Source of the DNA: Planctomycetota bacterium
GTDB lineage: Bacteria; Planctomycetota; GCA-002687715; DRQF01
Reading direction: 5' to 3'
Assembly (NCBI GenBank): GCA_036479435.1
Contig: JAZGFI010000224.1
Span: 1-47,532, forward strand
Length of the DNA: 47,532 bases
In this document: positions 1,170 to 47,096 of the stretch, one piece after another
Position numbering within the stretch: the first letter of the stretch is position 1
Layout of the letters: the number at the start of each line of letters is the position of its first letter
Notes under the pieces: model-generated
Database searches by the model: none
Seen by the model: only the letters and a program-made list of their open reading frames with translations
What the model was told of the DNA's origin: nothing
Program-made: the position numbers and the translations under genes

Positions 1170-2295
1170 ATGTCTAAAAATCTCATTCCAAAACCCGACG
1201 GCTACGACACCGTACTGAATGGCATCACCGTGATGCTCGAGGCCGCCCGTCGCGCAAGCGCGCGCGCTGTCAACTCTGTCATGACCACGACCTACTGGGA
1301 AGTGGGGCGGCGCATCGTTGAATTCGAACAAGGTGGTGAAGACCGGGCTGAATATGGCGAGAACTTAGTTCGCAACCTGGCGAAGGATCTCACTTCACGT
1401 TTCGGAAGAGGTTTTGGCCGTGCCAACCTCTACCAGATGCGAGCTTTCTACAGGACGTGGACCCTAGGAACGCTGAACGACGGGGAAACACGGAAAGTCC
1501 AGACAGCATCTGGATTATCTGGATTGGAAGGAAAATTCCCACTGCCCTGGTCCCATTATGTGACCTTGTTGGGAGTCAAGCACGACGGAGCCCGGGCCTT
1601 TTATGAACGCGAGACGCTCGCTGGCGGCTGGACCATCCGGCAGCTCAAAACGCCAAATAGGGAGCCAGTTCTTCGAGCGTGCCGCTTTGTCCAAAGACAA
1701 AACAAACACACTTAGAAAGGGCGAGAAAGCCAAGCCCAGGGATGCCGTCGCACCCGAAGAGGAGATTAAGGACCCGCTCGTACTCGAGTTCCTCAATCTC
1801 AAGGATGAGTACTCCGAAAGTGATCTCGAGGAGGCCCTGATCCGGCATCTTGAGAGTTTCCTGCTTGAGCTAGGCGGTGATTTCACCTTTGTCGGTCGCC
1901 AAAAGCGACTGCGAATCGACGACACTTGGTTCCGGGTCGATCTTGTGCTCTACCATCGCCGGCTACGATACTTGGTAATCGTGGACCTAAAACTCGAAGA
2001 CTTCTCGCACGCCGATGTCGGACAGATGAATGTCTATCTGAACTACGCACGGCGGCACTGGACACACGACGACGAAAACCCGCCGGTTGGCCTCATTTTG
2101 TGCGCCGCAAAGAAAAAGGAGCTGGCGGAATACGCCCTGCAAGGCATCGAGAATACGATGCTCGCCACTGAATACCGCACGAGACTTCCCGATGCCGGGG
2201 TACTTGAGGAAGAGCTCCGAAAGCGTCGCGAAGAACTCGAGTACCACGGGCTGCCCCCTTTGGCAGCAAAGAGCGAAGGCGGCATTGATGAGTGA
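1170..2295 (+). pseudogene. YhcG/DUF1016 family PD-(D/E)XK nuclease, split by a +1 frameshift (or sequencing error)
   Basis: N-part has YWEVGRRIVE, YGENLV and LPWSHY; C-part has IKDPLVLEFL, RVDLVLYHRRL..VDLK and GQMNVYLNY. Removing one A from AAAA at 1647-1650 restores WTIRQLKRQIGSQFFER. Confidence 0.85.
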
Positions 2296-2331: not shown

Positions 2332-2555
2332 GCCGGACTAAGCCTTCGGATCACCCAAGCCGAGGCTGATCGCGGGGCTGTCCTCCCTCCGCGAAATACT
2401 GGTCATCCGAACATGCTGCATGGATGACCACAATGACCCGTCTCACGCCTCGTCAAATTGAAGTCTTGGCCTTTATCCGGCGCTTTATTGCCGAGAGAGG
2501 CTTTGCGCCCACTCTGGCGGAAATTGCCGCGGGATTGGGGTTTCGCTCGGCTAAT
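2332..2555 (+). repeat. Direct repeat copy 2 (operator and 5' end of the intact lexA)
   Basis: Matches 817-1041. Confidence 0.95.
2399..2431 (+). promoter_or_regulatory. Putative tandem LexA boxes upstream of the intact lexA
   Basis: CTGG-TCATCCGA-ACAT and CTGC-ATGGATGA-CCAC, ending 1 nt before ATG 2433. Confidence 0.6.
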
Positions 2556-3125
2556 GCCTCGGCTCAGCACGTTCGTTTGCTGGTGAAGAAAGGGGCGCTG
2601 GCGGTCGATCCGGGGGTGGCGCGGAGCCTGCGGGTTTTGGAGGCGAAGGACGATTTTGGCGACGGCGCCAGCAACTCGAGTGCAAACTCGAATGCCAATT
2701 CGAGTGCTAATTCGGATGAGGAACGCGGGCTACCTTTGATTGGTGAAGTCGCGGCGGGCCAGCCGATCCTGGCTCAAGAGCAGATCGAAGGGCGCGTTGA
2801 TGTGCCCGGAAAACTGTTTCAACCGGGAGCCAACTACCTGCTGCGGGTGCGCGGCGACTCCATGATCGACGCCGGATTGCTGCCGGGAGATCTGGTGGCC
2901 GTACACCGGCAAAGCGAGGCCCGAGACGGACAGATGGTCGTGGTGCGGCTGGCGGATGAAGTCACGGTCAAGTATTGGAAAACACCTGACAATATAGTTC
3001 GACTGGTGCCGGCCAACGCGAATTACGAACCCATCGAAGTCGACCCTCGGCGTGAGTCGGTCGAGATTGAAGGTTTAGTGGTCGGTGTGTTACGGCTTGG
3101 CTCCAAAGGGATTTCACGAACATGA
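2433..3125 (+). CDS. lexA: SOS transcriptional repressor LexA
   Basis: wHTH LTPRQ...PTLAEIA..LGFRS.N, cleavage site VAAG, catalytic Ser (GDSM) and Lys (VTVK). Start placed at 2433 by alignment with the E. coli LexA N-terminus; the ATG at 2424 lies inside the operator. Confidence 0.96.
   Translation: MTRLTPRQIEVLAFIRRFIAERGFAPTLAEIAAGLGFRSANASAQHVRLLVKKGALAVDPGVARSLRVLEAKDDFGDGASNSSANSNANSSANSDEERGLPLIGEVAAGQPILAQEQIEGRVDVPGKLFQPGANYLLRVRGDSMIDAGLLPGDLVAVHRQSEARDGQMVVVRLADEVTVKYWKTPDNIVRLVPANANYEPIEVDPRRESVEIEGLVVGVLRLGSKGISRT
2667..2714 (+). repeat. Four imperfect 12-bp in-frame repeats in the LexA linker (ASNS-SANS-NANS-SANS)
   Basis: gccagcaactcg agtgcaaactcg aatgccaattcg agtgctaattcg. 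Confidence 0.8.
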
Positions 3126-3985
3126 CCGGATTTAAGGCCAATGATGAGGCTCCGAAATCACCCGATCGAGATACTGTCATGTGCTTAAGGTCAGCACTCG
3201 CTCGGCGGGCAGGCCCATCCTTGAGCCCGACGGCCTCGCCGGGGCCGCTCGCGTTGCAACACATGACAGAATCAGGATCCGCTGAGAACAATCCGCTCAG
3301 CACTTTGTTCCCCGAGGGCTTTGCGCGCGCTTGTTTGCACGAAGTTTGCCTGAATCGCGGAGGCGATGGAGGGCTCGAAGCTTTGTTGCCGAGCCTTTTG
3401 AGCGCGGTGTCGCCAAGCGGCTCGGCCGCGGCGTCAAGCCCTTCAGATCGATCATCAAGTCGCCGCCCGGGGCTTTGCTTTTGGATTGCCGGATCGAGCC
3501 GCAATCTGCCCTACCCTCCCGCTCTCGCCGACTGGGGTGCTGACCTTTCGCGCTGGGTTTTCCTCAACCCAGCGGACCGAGCGGGGCTTTGGGATGCACT
3601 GGAATTAACCCTCGCCTCCGGCCTCGCCGAGCTCGTGGTGGGAGTTTTGGATGAGGCCCCTCTCAGCGTGTTGCGACGCCTGCAGGTGGCGAGCCGGCGT
3701 GGGGGCGGCGCGGCCCTTTTGATCCGCGGATCTCAACAAGCCGCCGCCGCTTCGGCCGCTCCCCTTCGCCTCAGCCTTCGCGCTGAAGTGGCGCTCTCCC
3801 CCCGCCGGCGGCGCGTCCGCATCGAAGTCTTCAAACGTCCAGGGATGGGTTACTCCCCTCCCCTTAGCTGGGAGTGGGGTTTGGATGCGCTGGATGCACC
3901 TCCGCATGCCCGACTTCGCGATCGATCGTCAACTGCGCGCTCAAGCGGACGCGAACACGACTCGACTCGCGCTTTCGGCGCCTGA
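3122..3985 (+). CDS. imuA: ImuA-like (RecA/SulA-like) mutagenesis accessory protein
   Basis: LHEV, PYPPALADWG, LWDALELTLASG and LRRLQVA..GG motifs. ATGA overlap with lexA; lies before imuB. Start uncertain. Confidence 0.82.
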   Translation: MTGFKANDEAPKSPDRDTVMCLRSALARRAGPSLSPTASPGPLALQHMTESGSAENNPLSTLFPEGFARACLHEVCLNRGGDGGLEALLPSLLSAVSPSGSAAASSPSDRSSSRRPGLCFWIAGSSRNLPYPPALADWGADLSRWVFLNPADRAGLWDALELTLASGLAELVVGVLDEAPLSVLRRLQVASRRGGGAALLIRGSQQAAAASAAPLRLSLRAEVALSPRRRRVRIEVFKRPGMGYSPPLSWEWGLDALDAPPHARLRDRSSTARSSGREHDSTRAFGA

Positions 3986-5405
3986 ACGCGGCCGCGATCT
4001 CATCGTCGCGGCGAGCCCCGCCGCTTGTGCCTGCGGAGTTCGGGCCCGGCAAACGGCGAGTGCTGCCCGTGCGCTCTGCGCGGGGCTTCAGGTCCGCCCC
4101 TACGACGATGAGAATGATTGCAGCGCTTTGGAAGCTCTCGCGGCCCAGTTGATCTGCATCAGCCCGGACCTTGCGCTCGATCCTCGCCTGAGTGGCTCAC
4201 AACGCGGCATCTTTGTGGAGATCAGCCGCACCCAGGATCTTTTTGGCGGCGAACTCGCCACCCTTCAAGGCGCGCACCGCTTGGTCCACAAACTCGGGTA
4301 CCGCGCGGTGGTGGCAGTGAGCCCGGGTTTTGCGAGTTCACGGATTTTGAGCTGGAGCCAAGCCAAACTCCCCCTGCGGATGAAAGAAGGCGAGGCCCGC
4401 AAAGCTTTGGGGCCTTTGCCCTGGGCCGCTTTGGAATTGCCGAGCGCCAAAGCGCGCGACTTGCAGGAACTCGGCGTTCAGACTTTGGCAGACCTATTAG
4501 CCCTGCCCCGCGCCGGACTCGCCGCACGCTTCGGCGACGAGGTCGCCAAAGCCTGCGACCAGGCCTTGGGAGAAGGCGGCGGCGATGAGCAGCTCCCCCG
4601 CTTCAAAGCGCCGAAGATCTACCGCGAACGTTTGGAATGGTGGCCGCCGCGCGGCGACCTCGGCCCGATTCTCTTTGCGGCCAAACGACTTTTTGATGCC
4701 GCCGAGAACTGGCTCAGCGCCCAGCAAAAAGCCCTGGTGGAGGCACGACTGACCATCGGGCTCAGCGAAAAAGGACAAAAGCTCCCGCTCAGATTACGCC
4801 CCTCCGCTCCCCTTGCCAGCGCTGAAAGCTTGAACCGCTTGCTGCAGTCGCGGCTCGAATCCATCGAGCTGCCCGCCGCAGCCGAAAACGTCGAGTTGTT
4901 GTTCATCGAAACGAGCTCGCTTTGTGCTGAGCAAGGTGAACTGTTTGAAGCGCCTCAGCGCGCTTGGCAGCAAGAGAGCTATCAGCTTTTGGATCGCCTG
5001 CGTGGACGCTTGGGCGAACATCGTGTTTTGCGGGCTGAACTTTTGGCCGAGAGTCGTCCGGAATACGCCTTTGCCTGGCGAGAGTTTGGGGGCGCGGGGC
5101 AGACTTTTGAATCCAAGGTAAAGACCTTAGTCCCCTCGCTACGCCGCCCGCTATTCCTTGAGTCTCCGCCGCGCCCTCTGCAGGTAAGTTGCGATGCTGC
5201 TGGCCGCCCCCAAAGTATCGAGAAAGGACCTCAGCGAGGGCCTCTGCGCTGCGCGAGTGGCCCTGAGCGTATCGAAGGGGGTTGGTGGGAAGGTCGGCCG
5301 GTCCGGCGCCACTACTTTGAGGTGGAGACGAAAAGCGGCGCCCATCTTTGGATTTTTCGCGATCTGTTGAGCGGCGCTTGGTTCCAACACGGGACCTTTG
5401 ACTGA
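3885..5405 (+). CDS. imuB: ImuB, catalytically inactive Y-family polymerase
   Basis: Y-family-like N-terminus, LPRAGLAARFG, clamp-binding-like QGELF, and C-terminal GPERIEGGWW...RRHYF...LWIFRD...WFQHG. Confidence 0.93.
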   Translation: MRWMHLRMPDFAIDRQLRAQADANTTRLALSAPERGRDLIVAASPAACACGVRARQTASAARALCAGLQVRPYDDENDCSALEALAAQLICISPDLALDPRLSGSQRGIFVEISRTQDLFGGELATLQGAHRLVHKLGYRAVVAVSPGFASSRILSWSQAKLPLRMKEGEARKALGPLPWAALELPSAKARDLQELGVQTLADLLALPRAGLAARFGDEVAKACDQALGEGGGDEQLPRFKAPKIYRERLEWWPPRGDLGPILFAAKRLFDAAENWLSAQQKALVEARLTIGLSEKGQKLPLRLRPSAPLASAESLNRLLQSRLESIELPAAAENVELLFIETSSLCAEQGELFEAPQRAWQQESYQLLDRLRGRLGEHRVLRAELLAESRPEYAFAWREFGGAGQTFESKVKTLVPSLRRPLFLESPPRPLQVSCDAAGRPQSIEKGPQRGPLRCASGPERIEGGWWEGRPVRRHYFEVETKSGAHLWIFRDLLSGAWFQHGTFD

Positions 5406-8400
5406 TGCGCGATCCGGTAGATTTCAAAGCTCATCCTCATCCGGCGCAACGCGGGCAAAAAGATGCTGATGCAAGCTTCGAGAACGCGGGGAAGCCGAGG
5501 TTTGACAAGTCGGCACCAAGGGCGGGCCCCGCCTACGCCGAGCTCTACGCTCAGAGCAACTTCAGCTTTTTGCGCGGCGCTTCGCACCCGGACGAACTCG
5601 TCGCGCAGGCCGAAAATCTCGGCTACACCGCCTTAGCCCTTTGCGACGAGCAAACGCTCGCTGGCGTGGTGCGCGCCCACAGTGCGGCCAAAAATATCGC
5701 CTTCCCCTTTATCGTCGGAGCTGAAATCCACCCAATAGGAAGCCCTCGCTTGGTGTTACTCGCTCCGAATCACACCGCCTACACCAAACTCTCTCGCTTA
5801 ATCAGTCTCGGCCGAACGCGGGCGGATAAAGGCAGCGCGAAGATTTTCCGCGACGACCTCGATCGTTTTCGCGAAGGCTTACAAGCCATCTTGGTGCCGC
5901 GCGACCGTGCTTTAAGTCCGCGCACGACAAAAAATGAGGTCGACGCAGAAGCTGAAGCTTTGCGTCCTTTGCTGGAGATCTTCGGCGACCGCTGTCATTT
6001 AGCGGCGACGCTTAGCGAAGGACCCGACGACGAAGCCAAGCTCAAGCGTTTAGCACAGCTCGAAACGACACTGGATTGCCCCTTGGTTGCCGTGGGGGCC
6101 ACCGAGGCGCACAGCCTAAAGCGCCGCTCCTTGCGAGATGTTTTGGTCGCCTTGAATCGCAAAACAAGCATTGCGGCGCTCGCGGGGTCTTTAGCACCCT
6201 TGCGTTACTTGCGAACCCGCGAGCATCTCGGTCGGCTTTACCGCGATCGCCCTCAGCTTCTTCAACGCAGCGTTGACCTGGCGGCTCTGTGTAAGTTCTC
6301 GCTCGACGAACTCCGCTACGTTTATCCCGATGAAGTGGGCGAATACGACCTCGCCACCTTAGTGGCGCAAACCGCCGCGGCGCGCTGGCCCGAAGGCGTA
6401 TCCAAAAAAGTTCAGGGCCTCATCGACTACGAGATGAAGCTCATCGCCGAGATGCGCTACGAAAGCTACTTCCTCACCATCTACGACATCGTGCGCTTTG
6501 CGCGTTCGCGCGGCATCCTTTGCCAAGGGCGCGGGAGTGCCGCGAATTCGGTGGTCTGTTTTTGCCTCGGCATCACCAACGTCAATCCTGAGCAGTTTGA
6601 AATGCTCTTCGAGCGTTTTATCTCCAAAGACCGCAATGAGCCGCCGGACATCGACGTCGATTTTGAACACGAACGCCGCGAGGAAGTCCTCCAGTACGTC
6701 TACGAACGCTATGGCCGCGAGCGCGCCGCCTTGGCCGCCACGGTCATCAGTTATCGCGGGCGCAGCGCCGTAAGAGATGTAGGTAAAGTCATGGGGCTTT
6801 CGCTCGACCAGGTCGAACGCTTGTCCAAAAGCATCTCCGACCGCCACTCCCACGGACGTTTCGAAGATGAGCGCATCCTCGAGGCGGGCTTAGATCCCAA
6901 AGACGAACATTTGCAGCGCATCTTGAAGCTCGTGCGCGAGATCCGCGGCTTCCCCCGCCATCTGTCGCAACACGTCGGCGGCATGGTCATCACCCAGGGG
7001 CGGCTCGATGAGATCGTCCCCATCGAGAACGCGGCGATGGAAAACCGCAGCGTCATCCAGTGGGATAAAGACGATTTGCAGGCTTTGGGGTTGATGAAAG
7101 TCGATTGCTTGGCCCTCGGTATGCTCACCGCCATCCGCAAAGCATTTGCTTTGATCAAAGACTATCGCGGGCGAGATTTAACCCTCGCCACCGTACCTCG
7201 CGAAGTACCCGCGGTTTACGAAATGGCGGGGCGCGCCGACACGATTGGCGTGTTTCAGATCGAAAGCCGCGCACAGATGGCCATGCTTCCGCGCTTTTTA
7301 CCGAAGTGCTTTTACGACCTCGTCATCGAAATCGCGATCGTTCGCCCCGGCCCCATCCAGGGTGGCATGGTGCACCCTTACCTGCGCCGCCGCGCCGGGC
7401 GCGAGAAAGTGGAGTATCCTTCCGAGGCCGTGCGCGGCGTCTTAGGGCGCACCTTGGGAGTTCCGATTTTCCAAGAGCAAGTGATGAAGCTCGCCGTCGT
7501 TGCCGCGGGGTTTTCGCCCGGTGAAGCCGACCAGCTCCGCCGCGCGATGGCCGCTTGGCGCAAGCGCGGCACGATTGGGCACTTTCGGGAACGGCTCCTT
7601 AGGGGCATGGCCGAGCGCGGTTATCGAGAGGATTTTGCGGAGGCTTTATTTCGACAGATCGAAGGCTTCGGCGAGTATGGTTTCCCCGAAAGCCACGCCG
7701 CGAGTTTTGCCCACCTCACCTACGTTTCCCTTTGGCTCAAACGCTTTGAACCCGCGGCTTTCACCTCTGCCTTGCTGAACAGTTTGCCGATGGGTTTTTA
7801 CGGTCCCTCTCAACTCATTGGCGATGCGCGCCGGCACGGGGTCGATGTCCGTGCGGTCGACGTGATGAAAAGCGGATGGGATTGTCATTTAGAGATTGAT
7901 GAGAACGACGATGCCGAAGCCGATGACGATGGCAAAACAATAGATCGCAAGGCGCTCTCTCCCTCGTCCGAGAGCCCAAGCCTTTTGCCTTCGCGCTACG
8001 GATACGGCGGCCCCGCCTTGCGCCTCGGCCTGCGCACCTTGCGCGGCTTTGCCAAAAAGCGCGCCCAAACTTTGATCCGCGCTCGCAAAGAACAGCCCTT
8101 CCGTTTTGTTGAAGACTGCGTGCAGCGCTCGGGGCTCAACCGCCGCGAGGCCGCCCTTTTGGCCTCCGCCGGAGCCTTCGATGCGCTGAGTCAGCATCGC
8201 CGCGAAGCCTACTGGCAAGCGGGTTCCCCCCGCGTCACGGCTCCACTTTTTGATGCCGAGGCCCTTCGCGAACCCGCCCCCAACCTGGCCGAACCCAGCC
8301 TCCGCGAACAGGTTTTTGCTGACTACCGCAGCTTGGGCTACTCCTTGACCAGCCATCCGGTGGCTTTGGTCCGCAAAGAACTCGACCGCCGGCGCATCCT

Positions 8401-8716
8401 CGGCTTCAAAGCTTTAAGCGCTGTCGATTCGGGTCAGCCGGTGGCGGTAGCCGGTCTTTGCATTTGCCGCCAAAAGCCTGCCACGGCCTCTGGCATCATG
8501 TTCGTGACTCTAGAAGACGAGGACGGAGCCATCAATGTCATCGTTCGAGTAAAGGTCCAAGAGCGGTTTCGCAAAGCTTTGTTGGGAGCGACTTTCATGA
8601 TGGCGAAAGGGGTCTTGGAGCGAGCAGACGGGGTCACGCACCTGATGGCGGGCTATCTTGAGAACATGGATTTTCTGCTCACTAGGCTCGACATCCCTTC
8701 CCGTGATTTCCACTGA
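5405..8716 (+). CDS. dnaE2: Error-prone DNA polymerase DnaE2 (ImuC)
   Basis: SNFSFLRGASHP, GRGSAANS, PPDIDVDFEH, YGFPESHAASFA and C-terminal SRDFH. TGATG coupling to imuB. Confidence 0.97.
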   Translation: MRDPVDFKAHPHPAQRGQKDADASFENAGKPRFDKSAPRAGPAYAELYAQSNFSFLRGASHPDELVAQAENLGYTALALCDEQTLAGVVRAHSAAKNIAFPFIVGAEIHPIGSPRLVLLAPNHTAYTKLSRLISLGRTRADKGSAKIFRDDLDRFREGLQAILVPRDRALSPRTTKNEVDAEAEALRPLLEIFGDRCHLAATLSEGPDDEAKLKRLAQLETTLDCPLVAVGATEAHSLKRRSLRDVLVALNRKTSIAALAGSLAPLRYLRTREHLGRLYRDRPQLLQRSVDLAALCKFSLDELRYVYPDEVGEYDLATLVAQTAAARWPEGVSKKVQGLIDYEMKLIAEMRYESYFLTIYDIVRFARSRGILCQGRGSAANSVVCFCLGITNVNPEQFEMLFERFISKDRNEPPDIDVDFEHERREEVLQYVYERYGRERAALAATVISYRGRSAVRDVGKVMGLSLDQVERLSKSISDRHSHGRFEDERILEAGLDPKDEHLQRILKLVREIRGFPRHLSQHVGGMVITQGRLDEIVPIENAAMENRSVIQWDKDDLQALGLMKVDCLALGMLTAIRKAFALIKDYRGRDLTLATVPREVPAVYEMAGRADTIGVFQIESRAQMAMLPRFLPKCFYDLVIEIAIVRPGPIQGGMVHPYLRRRAGREKVEYPSEAVRGVLGRTLGVPIFQEQVMKLAVVAAGFSPGEADQLRRAMAAWRKRGTIGHFRERLLRGMAERGYREDFAEALFRQIEGFGEYGFPESHAASFAHLTYVSLWLKRFEPAAFTSALLNSLPMGFYGPSQLIGDARRHGVDVRAVDVMKSGWDCHLEIDENDDAEADDDGKTIDRKALSPSSESPSLLPSRYGYGGPALRLGLRTLRGFAKKRAQTLIRARKEQPFRFVEDCVQRSGLNRREAALLASAGAFDALSQHRREAYWQAGSPRVTAPLFDAEALREPAPNLAEPSLREQVFADYRSLGYSLTSHPVALVRKELDRRRILGFKALSAVDSGQPVAVAGLCICRQKPATASGIMFVTLEDEDGAINVIVRVKVQERFRKALLGATFMMAKGVLERADGVTHLMAGYLENMDFLLTRLDIPSRDFH

Positions 8717-41636: not shown

Positions 41637-42851
41637 TTACTTCACTTCGAGAAGCTCGACGTAAAAGATGAGGTCGCACTCGGCGGGGATGCCGGCGCGG
41701 GGGTTCCCTTTGGCGCCGTAGGCATCTTTCCAGGGAATCCTGAAGCGATAGATCGCCCCTTCTTTCATCAGGGGGATGCCCTCTTGCCATCCCTTCACGA
41801 CGCGCGCCAAAGCGAACTCAGACGAAGTGCCGCGGCTGTAAGAGCTGTCAAAATTGTGGCCATCTTTGGTCCAGCCACAATAGTGCGCCTTCACCGTGTT
41901 GGCGATCGAGGGCTGTAGTCCGTCGGCACTGCCTTTTTTGATGACTTCATACTCAAGACCGCTCTCAGTCTTGTGCAACTCCAAAGCGGGATCAAAGTCA
42001 AAGGGAATGACCTGGCCGACCTCAAGCGTCCACACCGTCGTGGTGTTGGGCGGGCACATGGGTCCAGCAGCTTTGCCCTTGAAGCAAATCTCTGGTGGAA
42101 CCTCAACGTGGTAGACGCCACCCGGGTGTACTTGCTCGATAAAGGAGGCGAAAAAGGGCAGCCTCTTGTTGAACGCCGCAGCGGTCACGCTCATGAGCCT
42201 GTCAGCACCGTTGACGCGACTACTGTCGCAGTAAGCGCTATCTTTGTTCCAAAAAGTGTAATGCAACTTGATCAGGTCGTGTTGCCCAATCTTCCGATTG
42301 GGATCTTTCGGCGCCTTCGCCGTCTTGATGCGCATTCCGTTCTGCAGTGTCACGATGGATTTGTCGTACGCGCGGAAGACCGGAAACATCGGCACGTTCG
42401 CACCGGCATCTTTGAAGCTGACCAAATCTACAGTGAAGATCAGGTCAGACTTGGCGGGGATCTTGGGACCTTGGGCTTTTTCGCCGTAGGCAAGTTTCCA
42501 GGGAATGGTGAACTTGAACATGTCACCTGGGCTCATCAACTGTAGGCCCTCATTCCAGCCTGGAATGACTCGCCCTAACGTGAAGGTGGCGGGTGCCCCG
42601 CCCGGTTTGTCGTAGGAAGCGTCAAAGACCGTGCCGTTTTTTAGCCAACCGCGGTAGTGACAGGTGACCGAATCACCCATCCCCGGGTGGCCCGTGCCCT
42701 CGCCTTTTCTGAGGATGCAGTACTGCAGACCCGTCTTCGTGACGATGATCTTGGTGTCCTCCGGAATCGGCGGATCCTTCTTTTCATCTTGGGCGACAAC
42801 AGTCAGCGCCATGAGGCCAATCAGGGCCAATGTCGAGATCTTGCGAATCAC
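41637..42851 (-). CDS. Exported FKBP-type peptidyl-prolyl isomerase with three FKBP domains
   Basis: Signal peptide. HYRGWL..GTVFDAS, VIPGWNEGL and HYCGW...FDSS, VVKGWQEG. The middle domain is degenerate. Confidence 0.92.
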   Translation of the reverse strand: MIRKISTLALIGLMALTVVAQDEKKDPPIPEDTKIIVTKTGLQYCILRKGEGTGHPGMGDSVTCHYRGWLKNGTVFDASYDKPGGAPATFTLGRVIPGWNEGLQLMSPGDMFKFTIPWKLAYGEKAQGPKIPAKSDLIFTVDLVSFKDAGANVPMFPVFRAYDKSIVTLQNGMRIKTAKAPKDPNRKIGQHDLIKLHYTFWNKDSAYCDSSRVNGADRLMSVTAAAFNKRLPFFASFIEQVHPGGVYHVEVPPEICFKGKAAGPMCPPNTTTVWTLEVGQVIPFDFDPALELHKTESGLEYEVIKKGSADGLQPSIANTVKAHYCGWTKDGHNFDSSYSRGTSSEFALARVVKGWQEGIPLMKEGAIYRFRIPWKDAYGAKGNPRAGIPAECDLIFYVELLEVK

Positions 42852-43056: not shown

Positions 43057-44643
43057 ATGGGGACTCCCCGTATCATCATCATCGGCGGCGGATTTGCCGG
43101 GGTCAAATGCGCAAAAATCTTGCGCAAGAAGCTCCGCGATCACGAGGCCGAGATCGTGATCTTCAACCGCGAAAACCACATGGTGTTCCACCCCATGTTG
43201 GCCGAAGTCGCCGGAGGCTCTCTCAACCCTGACGTCGTGGCGGCCCCTTTGCGCCAAATGTTGCCCAAGGTTAAATGCCGCACCGAAGAAGTGCAGGGTG
43301 TCGACCTGGTGAACAAAGAGGTTGTCTACGAGGCCCACGACGGCCGCGAGGCAACGATGACCTATGACCACGCGGTACTGGCCTGCGGCGGCGTGGTGAA
43401 CTTGGGCCTGGTACCCGGCATGGCGGATCACGCCTTTCCGCTCAAGACCGTAGGCGATGCCGTCGCGCTTCGCGCCCACATCATGCAACAGCTCGAAAAA
43501 GCGGAAGTCTGCGAAGACGAGGAGCGGCGACGTTGGTACTTGTCTTTCGTGGTCGTCGGCGGAGGCTACAGCGGCGTTGAAGCTGCAGGCGAGATCAATG
43601 ACCTCGCGCGAGGTTCCGTCCGCTTTTTCCAGAACATCCACGACGACGATATCAGCGTCGTCATTGTTCATTCACGCGATCAGTTGCTACCCGAGATCGG
43701 CTCAAAGCTCCGAGATTTCACTCGTGAGAAAATGCAACAAGCGGGCATCGAGGTCGTGCTCAATTCTCGGGCTGCGCTCGCGACGCCCGACGGCATCATC
43801 CTCAAAGACGAACGCGTTATCCGCGCCGCGACCGTCATCTGCACCATCGGCAGCATGGCCTCACCCGTCATCAAAAAACTCGACGTCGAGATGGAGCGCG
43901 ACCGCCCCATCACCGAACCCGACATGAGGGTCAAAGGACACGATTCCCTGTGGGCTATCGGTGATTGTGCCCTCATCATCAATGCCGAAGACGGCAAGCC
44001 CTCGCCGCCGACGGGGCAGTTTGCCGAGCGCGAAGGCAAGCAAGCCGCTTACAACATCATCCGCACGCTCAAGGGCGAAGAGACCAAGCCCTTTTCTTTC
44101 AAGCCGCTGGGACAGCTGTGTTCCATCGGGGGCCACCGCGCCGTCGCAGAAGTCTTCGGCTTGCGGATCTCAGGGTTTTTCGCCTGGGTCATGTGGCGCA
44201 TCATCTACTTGATGAAGATGCCTTCGTGGTCGAGGCGCTTTAAGGCGGCCTTTGACTGGGCTTGGCAAATCGTCTTCTCGCGCGACTTGACTCACCTAAA
44301 ACCCGACAAGACCGCCCGCGTATCCCACGCCTTCTATCGAGACGGGGATTGGATCTTCCGCGAGGGAGATCCGGCGGCCGACTTCTACGTGTTGGAAAAG
44401 GGCGAAGTCGAGATCGTGCGCGGCAGCGGTGAAAAGGAAATAGTGTTGGCCAAGCTTGCCGCTGGCGAGTTCTTCGGCGAAATGGCGCTCTTGAAAGACG
44501 AGCCTCGCAACGCTGGCGTAAGGGCGAAGGGCAACGTTGAAGTCGTCACCATGGGCAAAAACGTCTTCCAACAGATCTCGAGTTCTCTGGGTCCGCTGCA
44601 GGAACTGTTGGAACAATCGATGATCGAACGATCGCGGTCATAA
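43057..44643 (+). CDS. Type II NAD(P)H dehydrogenase (NDH-2) family FAD oxidoreductase fused to a C-terminal cNMP-binding domain
   Basis: GGGFAG, GGGYSGVE.AGE and WAIGDCA motifs. C-terminal IFREGD...FYVLEKGEVEI...GEFFGEMALL..EPRNAGVRA. Confidence 0.9.
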   Translation: MGTPRIIIIGGGFAGVKCAKILRKKLRDHEAEIVIFNRENHMVFHPMLAEVAGGSLNPDVVAAPLRQMLPKVKCRTEEVQGVDLVNKEVVYEAHDGREATMTYDHAVLACGGVVNLGLVPGMADHAFPLKTVGDAVALRAHIMQQLEKAEVCEDEERRRWYLSFVVVGGGYSGVEAAGEINDLARGSVRFFQNIHDDDISVVIVHSRDQLLPEIGSKLRDFTREKMQQAGIEVVLNSRAALATPDGIILKDERVIRAATVICTIGSMASPVIKKLDVEMERDRPITEPDMRVKGHDSLWAIGDCALIINAEDGKPSPPTGQFAEREGKQAAYNIIRTLKGEETKPFSFKPLGQLCSIGGHRAVAEVFGLRISGFFAWVMWRIIYLMKMPSWSRRFKAAFDWAWQIVFSRDLTHLKPDKTARVSHAFYRDGDWIFREGDPAADFYVLEKGEVEIVRGSGEKEIVLAKLAAGEFFGEMALLKDEPRNAGVRAKGNVEVVTMGKNVFQQISSSLGPLQELLEQSMIERSRS

Positions 44644-44688
44644 CGCAGATCGCAGTCTTAGCGAATGTCGCAGGATCGACGCCGATCG

Positions 44689-46335
44689 CTAGTCGCGAAC
44701 ACTCTTGACGAGATAAGGTTGCACCGCCTTGGTCTTGCCCTTCAGCGGGACAACATCTGTCGCCTCACAATCAAAGTAGTCACCAATCATCTCGAAGGTT
44801 AAGGGCCCAATCACCACCTGGCCCGGTTTCGCCACCGTCGACTCAAGGCGCGATGCCGTGTTCACCGTATCTCCGATGACGGTGTAGTCTTTTCGCTCGG
44901 GAGACCCGATATCACCGGCCACCACCGGGCCGGAGTTGATGCCGATACGCATCGCGACTTCTTGGCCCTCGTGTTCTGCATTCCAGAGTTTTAGTTCTTG
45001 CTGCATGCGCAGCGCCGCCCTCACCGCACGCTCGGCGTGGTCGGGCTGTTCGATGGGGGCTCCGAAGAACGCCATCATTCCGTCACCCATGAACTTGTCG
45101 AGAGTGCCGTCGAACTCAAAAATGCAGTTTGTCATCTTCTCAAAAATGACATTTAGCATCGCCGCCGTGTCCTGAGGCGTCATGTTCTCGGACATCGCCG
45201 TAAAGCCGGAGAGGTCGCCAAAGAGGATGGTGACCTCGCGCTCTTCGGTCATCATCCCGCCGATTTGATGGAGGCCGGTCTTGTTTGATCTCGCATCAGA
45301 CAAGATCTTGTCAACAACGTGTTTCGAGTTGTACTTAGCGAGCTTGTCGCGACAACTTTCTTCGAAGATGATGCGTTCTTGTAAGCGACGTTGCTCCACC
45401 GCGACGGCCGAAAACACCGCCAAGGCTGAGAGCAGCCGTAAATTCTCTTCGCTGAAGGGCTTCAAGCGGCTTACATAGTCGACGTACAAGATCCCGCAAA
45501 CGCCATGATCAGCGCTATCAGGGGCAAACATCGGCGCACACATCGCCGATTGAATATTGAGATTGATGATGCTCTCTTCTTGCCCAAATCGCTGGTCGGA
45601 AAGGGCATCTCCTACCCGAAACGCCTGCTTGCAACGTATAGCCTCCATCGCAATCGAATGGCTAACCTTGATGGGATCCATGTTCCGATCGTCGCGGGTG
45701 CGCGTCACCCGCGGGATAATCTCGTTTTTCTCCGAATCAAAAAGCGCCACGACGGCGCGTTCGGCCGGCAGGTTTTTGAAAATCAAGTCGATGATCTTGT
45801 CGAACATCTCGTCCAGCCCACCGGAGGCGAGCAAGGCCTGCGCTGCTTCGGCAAAGAGGCTCACGGCCCAGGCTGCAGCTTGCGAAGAGTCGCCAATGCT
45901 GAGGTCCGAGGAGTCCGAACCCAAGTTGAGATCCGCCATGTTGAAGATGGCGGTCTTGTTGCTGCGCGCCGCATCTTCTTCAAAAACAACGCGATGGCCT
46001 CGGGAACCCGAAAGGCGAGACGCGGGCAACTTTTCCAACTCAAACTGAAGCCTGACTTCGCCCAACCAAATCGTGTCGCCGCTTTTGATTTTGCTCTTAA
46101 TGACCGGCGCTTCGGCGTCATTGACTTTGGTGCCATTGGCACTCTGCATGTCGAAAACCGACCAACCGCTGGGCTCACGAATAATCGTGGCGTGCTTACG
46201 CGAGACGCGTTCGTCTTTGACCGTAAGGTCACAGCTCGGCGATCGGCCAATGACGATACGGTCTTGAACCAACGTTTCCGATGATTCACGACCGTTGATC
46301 ACAAAAGTCAATTTGACTCGGGGAATCTCCGACAT
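44689..46335 (-). CDS. FHA-GAF class III adenylate cyclase
   Basis: FHA (IGRS, VSRKHA, SANGT), GAF (SAMCAPM..GILYVD) and cyclase (LFGDLSGFT, DKFMGDG, YTVIGDTVNTASRLE). The Lys/Thr pair implies ATP specificity. TGATG coupling to the PDE gene. Confidence 0.92.
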   Translation of the reverse strand: MSEIPRVKLTFVINGRESSETLVQDRIVIGRSPSCDLTVKDERVSRKHATIIREPSGWSVFDMQSANGTKVNDAEAPVIKSKIKSGDTIWLGEVRLQFELEKLPASRLSGSRGHRVVFEEDAARSNKTAIFNMADLNLGSDSSDLSIGDSSQAAAWAVSLFAEAAQALLASGGLDEMFDKIIDLIFKNLPAERAVVALFDSEKNEIIPRVTRTRDDRNMDPIKVSHSIAMEAIRCKQAFRVGDALSDQRFGQEESIINLNIQSAMCAPMFAPDSADHGVCGILYVDYVSRLKPFSEENLRLLSALAVFSAVAVEQRRLQERIIFEESCRDKLAKYNSKHVVDKILSDARSNKTGLHQIGGMMTEEREVTILFGDLSGFTAMSENMTPQDTAAMLNVIFEKMTNCIFEFDGTLDKFMGDGMMAFFGAPIEQPDHAERAVRAALRMQQELKLWNAEHEGQEVAMRIGINSGPVVAGDIGSPERKDYTVIGDTVNTASRLESTVAKPGQVVIGPLTFEMIGDYFDCEATDVVPLKGKTKAVQPYLVKSVRD

Positions 46336-47096
46336 CAAAAATCATAGTCCTTGTTCGCAGCTCCAACTTGGACCATCGGGTCCTGGAGCGATTCCAACTC
46401 AGCCACAATTTCGTCGCGATAGCGAGCCTTGATGTGGAATGCGATAAAAGGCAAGTCGCGCTGGAGCTTACCTTTTTCCAGCGCGAAAAGCTCTGGAGTC
46501 AGGTGTTTCGTCAACGCCGCCATCTTGGCTTGCCCATTGGGGAAACTCGCCTCTAGAAAGACAGCCTTCAGATTCTCCTCTTGGCGGGCGAGGTCCCAGA
46601 CTTCTGTTGTCGGCCCGGTATCGCCCACAATAAGAACGCTCGTATCACCCTCTCGGATCATGTACGCCAAGGTTGGAACCGGGTGGGACACCGGGATCGC
46701 CGTGATTTCTTTGTCAGCAATTCGAAAAGTCTGCCGTGGCTCGACCTCAATCAACTCGAAAAATGGGCGACCGGCGGGGGCCCGATTGAGCAGATCCGGC
46801 CAAAGGCGGTCATTGAAAAGATCCTCTTTGAGGCAATCCATCACCGCGTGGCTCGCGTGAATTCGAACCGGCTCTGAACGATCTTCCCAAGTATTCTCAA
46901 GCCATACCGGGAGGCTCGAAATATGATCTGCGTGGCTGTGGGTAATGAGGAGGTCTTTAACCCCTAGCTGCTGATCTGCGCTCGCGACGTAGCCGATCGA
47001 GCCCGCGTCAACCGCGATGTGGTCATCAACCAAAAAAGAGGTCAGGTACCCCTCAAGCCGCGAATCGCACAGGGAGCCGAGTAGCCGAATCTTCAT
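46335..47096 (-). CDS. Class II (metallo-beta-lactamase fold) 3',5'-cyclic nucleotide phosphodiesterase
   Basis: TSFLVDD..AVDAG, THSHADH, VSHPVP, GDTGPT, EASFPN, HLTP and HIK. Confidence 0.85.
   Translation of the reverse strand: MKIRLLGSLCDSRLEGYLTSFLVDDHIAVDAGSIGYVASADQQLGVKDLLITHSHADHISSLPVWLENTWEDRSEPVRIHASHAVMDCLKEDLFNDRLWPDLLNRAPAGRPFFELIEVEPRQTFRIADKEITAIPVSHPVPTLAYMIREGDTSVLIVGDTGPTTEVWDLARQEENLKAVFLEASFPNGQAKMAALTKHLTPELFALEKGKLQRDLPFIAFHIKARYRDEIVAELESLQDPMVQVGAANKDYDF

Follow-up and report, generated by a model that had tools for sequence, protein, structure and literature searches.

Can cAMP switch a respiratory-type flavoenzyme directly? To our knowledge, bacterial cAMP reaches respiration mainly through CRP-dependent transcription. 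The question is raised by a three-gene locus on contig JAZGFI010000224.1 of a Planctomycetota bacterium (GenBank assembly GCA_036479435.1). Here a gene of the type II NADH dehydrogenase (NDH-2) family, which ends in a cyclic-nucleotide (cNMP)-binding domain, meets the genes of a class III cyclase and a candidate class II phosphodiesterase (PDE). The window is the whole stretch analysed, positions 1 to 47,532 of this contig. The initial annotation had proposed that the three genes form a self-contained circuit, in which kinase input sets a local cAMP pool and cAMP controls the enzyme with no transcription factor. Our answer is different in scope. On balance we lean towards the reading that cAMP binds the C-terminal cassette of the fusion and modulates an NADPH:quinone oxidoreductase, which would act alongside complex I as a valve that does not pump. 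Relatives of the fusion are repeatedly adjacent to unrelated adenylate cyclase genes, and for this reason cAMP likely switches the enzyme directly. The locus is laid out as follows.

43057..44643, plus strand: NDH-2-cNMP fusion gene, 528 amino acids (aa), from the open reading frame (ORF) call and Pfam.
44644..44688, no strand: intergenic gap of 45 bp, separating convergent stop codons.
44689..46335, minus strand: FHA-GAF-class III cyclase gene (frame 44689..46338; the ATG at 46335 gives 548 aa).
46335..47096, minus strand: class II PDE candidate gene, 253 aa, PDEase_II.

The fusion gene (plus strand) and the cyclase gene (minus strand) are convergent, with 45 bp between their stops. A promoter and terminator scan, which reports consensus matches only, found no consensus intrinsic terminator in this gap. 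The stop codon of the PDE gene and the ATG of the cyclase gene overlap as TGATG at 46337..46333. The ORF coordinates and this overlap bear out the arrangement first described, namely three genes, a 45-bp gap and translational coupling of PDE and cyclase. Pfam likewise returned the domains that had been named: Pyr_redox_2, NDH2_C and cNMP_binding (residues 427-507, 78 bits) in the fusion; FHA, GAF and Guanylate_cyc (PF00211, 115 bits) in the cyclase; and PDEase_II in the PDE.

The pairing of fusion and cyclase was found again in a second clade. In genome G042, a second fusion, 38% identical to that of the window, lies directly behind a Cache-type cyclase gene. This sister clade is large and forms a separate branch in the core tree, and relatives without the cyclic-nucleotide-binding (CNB) domain lie beside both fusion clades. 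To compare neighbourhoods, we used 79 metagenome loci of the sister clade, taken from the best 80 of 463 scanned. A class III cyclase gene is a neighbour in 29 of the 79, in 28 cases within 150 bp of the fusion frame; for the 352 kb of flank, chance alone predicts about 0.8-1.4 cyclases. Of the 29, those on the strand of the fusion lie upstream in 15 loci and downstream in 5; the remaining ones are convergent (7) or divergent (2). Where 2.5 kb was available on both sides, the cyclase was present in 8 of 13 loci, and after clustering at 90% identity the pairing was retained in 19 of 53 clusters. A search of 251 whole genomes found 5 sister-clade carriers, of which 2 have the cyclase next to the fusion. 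The synteny comparison that the initial annotation had called for therefore has two outcomes: the fusion-cyclase pairing recurs (29/79), and the three-gene set does not, being confined to one family.

The neighbouring cyclases of the sister clade are of dCache_1-, dCache_3-HAMP- and GAF-PAS-type architecture. They are 29-41% identical to the catalytic domain of the window cyclase, and the adenylyl-type Lys is present in each of the 26 in which the motif can be seen. A single clade for the 22 fusion-adjacent cyclases was rejected by the approximately unbiased (AU) test (p-AU 0.0011; 25 of 39 cyclases, with long branches in play). The phosphate-binding cassette is kept in 117 of 120 sister-clade sequences. 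The earlier proposal that cAMP is the ligand of the fused NDH-2 is thus supported indirectly, by the adenylyl-type cyclases adjacent in these 29 loci. No class II PDE was found by Pfam at the 79 loci. Candidates returned by a home-made profile at L112, L144, L150, L179 and L205 were rejected, as Pfam assigned them to Lactamase_B and not to PDEase_II. Extra cNMP-domain genes are common at sister-clade loci (L181:10099-11763; L195, L198, L200, L203, L209, L211). These encode a cNMP-thioredoxin-reductase-like protein, FHA-cNMP-CRP, cNMP-4Fe-4S and cNMP-histidine kinase proteins.

The window's fusion consists of an NDH-2-family flavoprotein (residues 1-410), a linker (410-422) and a CNB domain (about 423-527). 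Its phosphate-binding cassette, described as intact in the initial annotation, is so: it reads FFGEMALLKDEPRNA, and G474, E475 and R484 align with the cassettes of PKG and PKA in PDB sequence matches of the C-terminal domain. Conservation was read from an alignment of the window's clade with 195 rows, partly redundant, in which 185 rows have the cassette Glu and 173 the Arg. Also kept are R325 (193 rows) and R525 of the C-helix (182 rows). Many cysteines are retained in the family (C18, C74, C110, C152, C262, C304 and C355, in 163-194 rows). The AlphaFold model has a pLDDT of 79 and is confident in both domains, with a beta-roll and two helices in the CNB domain. Since linker 410-422 is of low confidence, the model is silent on coupling between core and CNB domain. 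When the core (1-412) and the CNB domain (420-528) were modelled as a complex, the score was 0.00, and the result was not used as evidence.

Judged by fold and motifs, the predicted protein is an NDH-2-family member. Its closest solved structures are NDH-2s both by sequence and by fold (Foldseek on the AlphaFold model). NDH2_C (PF22366) scores 48 bits over a cut-off of 27.7, and the corresponding helices are modelled at 374-385 and 391-406. The first GxGxxG motif (G10/G12/G15) is present in 190 of 195 rows, the other 5 being gaps, and the second (G168/G170/G173) in all 195. The quinone-site motif of NDH-2 is AQxAxQ. In the window's clade this region agrees with it in part and reads GQFAER(Q/E)G, with the first Gln, Q321, in 195/195 rows; in the sister clade it reads AQHALRQA.

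In an alignment of the fusion with C. thermarum NDH-2, H205 falls on E198, so that His-Ser-Arg replaces the NADH-selecting Glu. Across the 195 rows, position 205 is His in 187 and Gln in 8; the NADH-selecting acidic residue is not present in the window's fusion. Blaza et al. (PMC5220320) hold E198 responsible for excluding NADPH and cite a Glu-to-Gln change that shifts specificity. The residue at this position governs donor preference and does not decide membership of the NDH-2 family. Because this Glu is replaced by His205, NADPH is predicted to be the donor of the fusion, more likely than NADH.

The cyclase appears complete in its motifs. D374, K414, D418, N492 and R496 are invariant in 9/9 aligned orthologues, and Thr485 is intact. 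We take Asp374 and Asp418 to be the metal ligands, Lys414 and Thr485 the purine-site residues, and Asn492 and Arg496 the catalytic pair. The FHA motifs G30-R31, S45-x-x-H48 and N67-G68 are intact. No transmembrane stretch was found in the cyclase (maximum hydropathy 1.3), which is predicted to be soluble. The 253-aa PDE is a candidate class II (metallo-beta-lactamase fold) cNMP phosphodiesterase, predicted to be cytoplasmic with no signal peptide evident. PDEase_II scores 53.3 bits against a cut-off of 23.7, covering only profile positions 82-175 of 340. The best PDB match is the class II PDE1 4ojv (E 3.8e-06), and HxHxDH and FNDxxWPD are invariant in 5/5 aligned sequences. The FHA-GAF cyclase is likely a cAMP source for the fusion, non-exclusively, and cyclase and PDE together likely contribute to a cAMP pool with no sealed circuit. 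The genome has 46 Ser/Thr kinase matches, which makes the FHA domain a plausible entry point for phospho-Thr signals.

In the genome of the window's host (G000), three class III cyclases are nearly complete, and two others are fragments. It also has five cNMP-domain genes: the fusion, an MscS channel, an aspartase/fumarase-type lyase, a 4Fe-4S protein and a stand-alone domain. The MscS gene, with its C-terminal cNMP domain, is abutted by a dCache-HAMP class III cyclase gene (L129:7434-11161; G000:C90:47433-51160), which makes a second cyclase-effector pair. No CRP-type helix-turn-helix (HTH_Crp_2) was found in G000, which is 92% complete, and all 14 control genomes matched. Among 8 relatives, only G004 gave a full-length HTH_Crp_2 match. 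Signalling by cAMP in G000 therefore appears to run via fused effectors. This fits the earlier claim that no transcription factor is involved, and it contradicts the claim that the circuit is self-contained. G000 has the complex I 49-kDa subunit, and no NDH2_C gene other than the fusion was found in it. In the lyase (L131:4520-6625; G000:C148) the cNMP domain is N-terminal. The gene with cNMP and 4Fe-4S domains (L132:7806-8954; G000:C195) adjoins an FHA-multiheme cytochrome gene.

The NDH-2-cNMP fusion is a widespread family. Besides Planctomycetota, its loci occur in Verrucomicrobiota, Nitrospirota, Melainabacteria, Acidobacteriota, Dadabacteria and gammaproteobacteria, with Oleiharenicola lentus as a cultured carrier. 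PF00027 (cNMP) is present in all 120 top homologues listed, most of them with CBS added. A long C-terminal tail, a CBS pair where checked, is found in 149 of 195 window-clade rows. The fusion of the closest relative (L031:8957-10963, 73%) keeps the CBS tail, which is missing in the window protein and six other family members; this points to loss of the tail within the window's family. The fusion architecture is already visible in automatic databases. We found no description of it in the openly searchable literature. In the main text of a 2025 preprint on NDH-2 evolution (10.1101/2025.10.14.682086), the words cyclic, cNMP, CBS and fusion have 0 occurrences, and its supplements could list such sequences.

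Several results weigh against cAMP control of a quinone reductase. After clustering of the sister clade at 80% identity, the pairing is left in 4 of 21 clusters, so that the paired loci are mostly kin. In the window's clade the cassette Arg is missing in 22 of 195 rows, and the quinone-site motif GQFAERxG deviates from the NDH-2 pattern. Linkage outside the family was examined at the best 80 of 586 window-clade loci, reduced to 67 by removal of L055 (a family member) and 12 without a cNMP match. Neither a class III cyclase nor a class II PDE was found near any of these 67 fusions (956 kb of flank, 56 loci with 3 kb downstream; about 0.4 cyclases expected by chance). Pfam searches detected a class III cyclase in 43 of 50 of these fusion genomes, a point in favour of cAMP control, but the nearest ones lie 31 and 45 kb from the fusion and none is closer. 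None was found in the other 7, which are incomplete metagenome-assembled genomes. Six further Planctomycetota fusions from a 401-genome sample had no cyclase in the fetched flanks (0/6).

In favour of cAMP control, one of these six (G672) carries a class II PDE gene next to the fusion and divergent to it. We also compared cassette decay with cyclase loss. The comparison was uninformative: counted by hand, no cyclase was found in 5/17 degenerate versus 11/33 intact genomes at E<=1e-15, and in 4/17 versus 3/33 at E<=1e-3. In 13 Verrucomicrobiota fusion loci, sufU-/sufS-like genes lie directly downstream on the same strand (e.g. L054:5022-6715). In about 6 of these 13, a nuo operon is divergent upstream of the fusion.

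Is the locus then a dedicated, self-contained circuit of three genes, running from kinase to a local cAMP pool to NDH-2? Such a circuit would agree with the PDE/cyclase translational coupling and with the intact FHA motifs and catalytic residues of the cyclase. It would also agree with the fusion-cyclase junction, which is unbroken in 9/9 family genomes, G000 included; the cyclase is convergent on the fusion in 8/8 of the others, one interrupted by a contig end. However, carB, an acyl-CoA ligase gene, nadA, a PALP gene and an FKBP gene are conserved together with the pair, and the nadA-PALP-FKBP junction is kept in 7/7 family loci. As this housekeeping block is equally stable, the family linkage is ordinary synteny, and we rejected it as proof of a circuit. 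The PDE is found in just 3 of 8 other family genomes, with none in the remaining five by Pfam profile (genomes 83-92% complete). Cyclase, PDE and fusion occur together only in G000, G001, G003 and G005, all of one family; elsewhere none of the fusion loci has both (0/67, 0/79 and 0/6). The same PDE-cyclase pair is present in G013, of another family, whose genome has no NDH-2 match. Fusion and cyclase are convergent and hence not on one transcript, and beyond the locus G000 holds another two near-complete cyclases and another four cNMP proteins. Taken with the 0/67 distant loci, these results do not sustain the conserved three-gene circuit first proposed, and we consider it improbable.

A somewhat better chance, still clearly an unlikely one, is given to the view that the cNMP-like domain has a ligand other than cAMP or a structural role, as a dimer or membrane contact often accompanied by a CBS adenylate sensor. 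The cyclase beside the window's fusion would then be an inherited accident. The lack of a cyclase near the 67 distant loci, the long tails with CBS pairs and the loss of the cassette in some sub-branches of the window's clade all favour this view. Against it, about 90% of rows retain the cassette Glu and Arg across two clades that are 38% identical, and cyclase adjacency is repeated in the sister clade. Least probable of all, in our judgement, is a protein that binds cAMP and passes electrons to a non-quinone acceptor, as a soluble or peripheral NADPH oxidoreductase for e.g. an Fe-S or sulfur-handling system. The altered quinone motif with a near-invariant R325, the conserved C18, C74, C152, C304 and C355, and the sufU-sufS genes of the 13 Verrucomicrobiota loci would suit such an enzyme, but the NDH2_C domain and both C-terminal helices are present, Q321 aligns with the conserved quinone-site Gln in every row, and NDH-2s account for all the best matches by sequence and by fold.

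We return to cAMP control of an NADPH:quinone oxidoreductase. In the proposed mechanism, cAMP would occupy the cassette and move the C-helix (R525). This helix follows the membrane-anchoring helices, and its movement would alter quinone access or turnover, as a predicted allosteric effect. Electrons would pass from NADPH to quinone, without pumping, beside complex I. The PDE-cyclase cassette is probably a unit of its own, which came to lie beside the fusion in the ancestor of the family, the PDE being afterwards lost or never gained in several genera. A broader claim, to which we give slightly less than even weight, is that NDH-2-cNMP fusions are widespread cAMP-gated NADPH:quinone oxidoreductases beside which Cache, GAF-PAS and FHA-GAF cyclases were recruited several times; cAMP would then open a respiratory valve of the non-pumping kind directly, with no CRP in the present genome. 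If this is true, a cAMP-switched respiratory flavoenzyme would let the cell adjust NADPH oxidation quickly and post-translationally. A direct test of the claim is possible, because the enzyme is a single chain, its assay is a simple spectrophotometric one and a carrier, Oleiharenicola lentus, is in culture.

Other features were noted around the locus. In the window, an FKBP-type isomerase gene with three matched FKBP_C stretches (41637-42851) is divergent from the fusion, and four relatives have an inositol-monophosphatase gene inserted between these genes. In G013, the PDE and FHA-GAF cyclase pair (L134:5480-9156) is convergent on a ferredoxin-reductase-like ORF, a neighbour judged by sequence alone. 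At window 2424-8716, lexA is followed by two ORFs without a Pfam match and a DNA polymerase III alpha gene, which is the layout of a lexA-imuA-imuB-dnaE2 mutagenesis cassette. At window 1170-2295, a YhcG/DUF1016 gene is split across two overlapping frames (N-terminal and nuclease domains), possibly by a frameshift.

How does the locus compare with known systems? Like the bacterial NDH-2s of C. thermarum (4nwz), mycobacteria (9mqy) and S. aureus (5na1), the fusion has two GxGxxG Rossmann motifs and NDH2_C membrane helices, and the fold match to them has a TM of 0.83 by target with 26-29% structural identity. Unlike them, the window fusion and its relatives have a C-terminal cNMP domain (often with CBS in relatives), His or Gln in place of Glu198, and the GQFAERxG quinone motif. 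The cyanobacterial adenylyl cyclases CyaD and Cya1 have the order FHA, GAF and class III catalytic domain, as does the window cyclase. The latter differs in that its gene is coupled to that of a class II PDE and adjoins the gene of an enzyme effector. The window PDE shares PDEase_II, HxHxDH and FND..WPD with the class II PDEs yeast PDE1 (4ojv) and Vibrio CpdP, the latter as cited in PMC4858519. Unlike those, this candidate enzyme is short (253 aa), with no signal peptide evident.

The plant external NADPH dehydrogenase NDB1 senses Ca2+ through an internal EF-hand. According to PMC4587368, NDB1 belongs to the type II NADPH dehydrogenases and depends for its activity on a second messenger, and the fusion would resemble it in both respects by prediction. 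Unlike the window protein, whose predicted sensor is the C-terminal CNB domain, NDB1 is eukaryotic and its messenger is Ca2+. In the cAMP-activated mycobacterial acetyltransferases Rv0998 and MSMEG_5458, as described in PMC5861322, cAMP binding to a fused CNB domain controls the enzyme with no transcription factor. The window protein likewise has a CNB domain fused to an enzyme, and for it such control is predicted. In contrast, Rv0998 and MSMEG_5458 have an N-terminal CNB domain and a GNAT output, and they are not flavoenzymes. If cAMP control holds, the fusion would be a bacterial parallel to the Ca2+-regulated NDB1 of plants.

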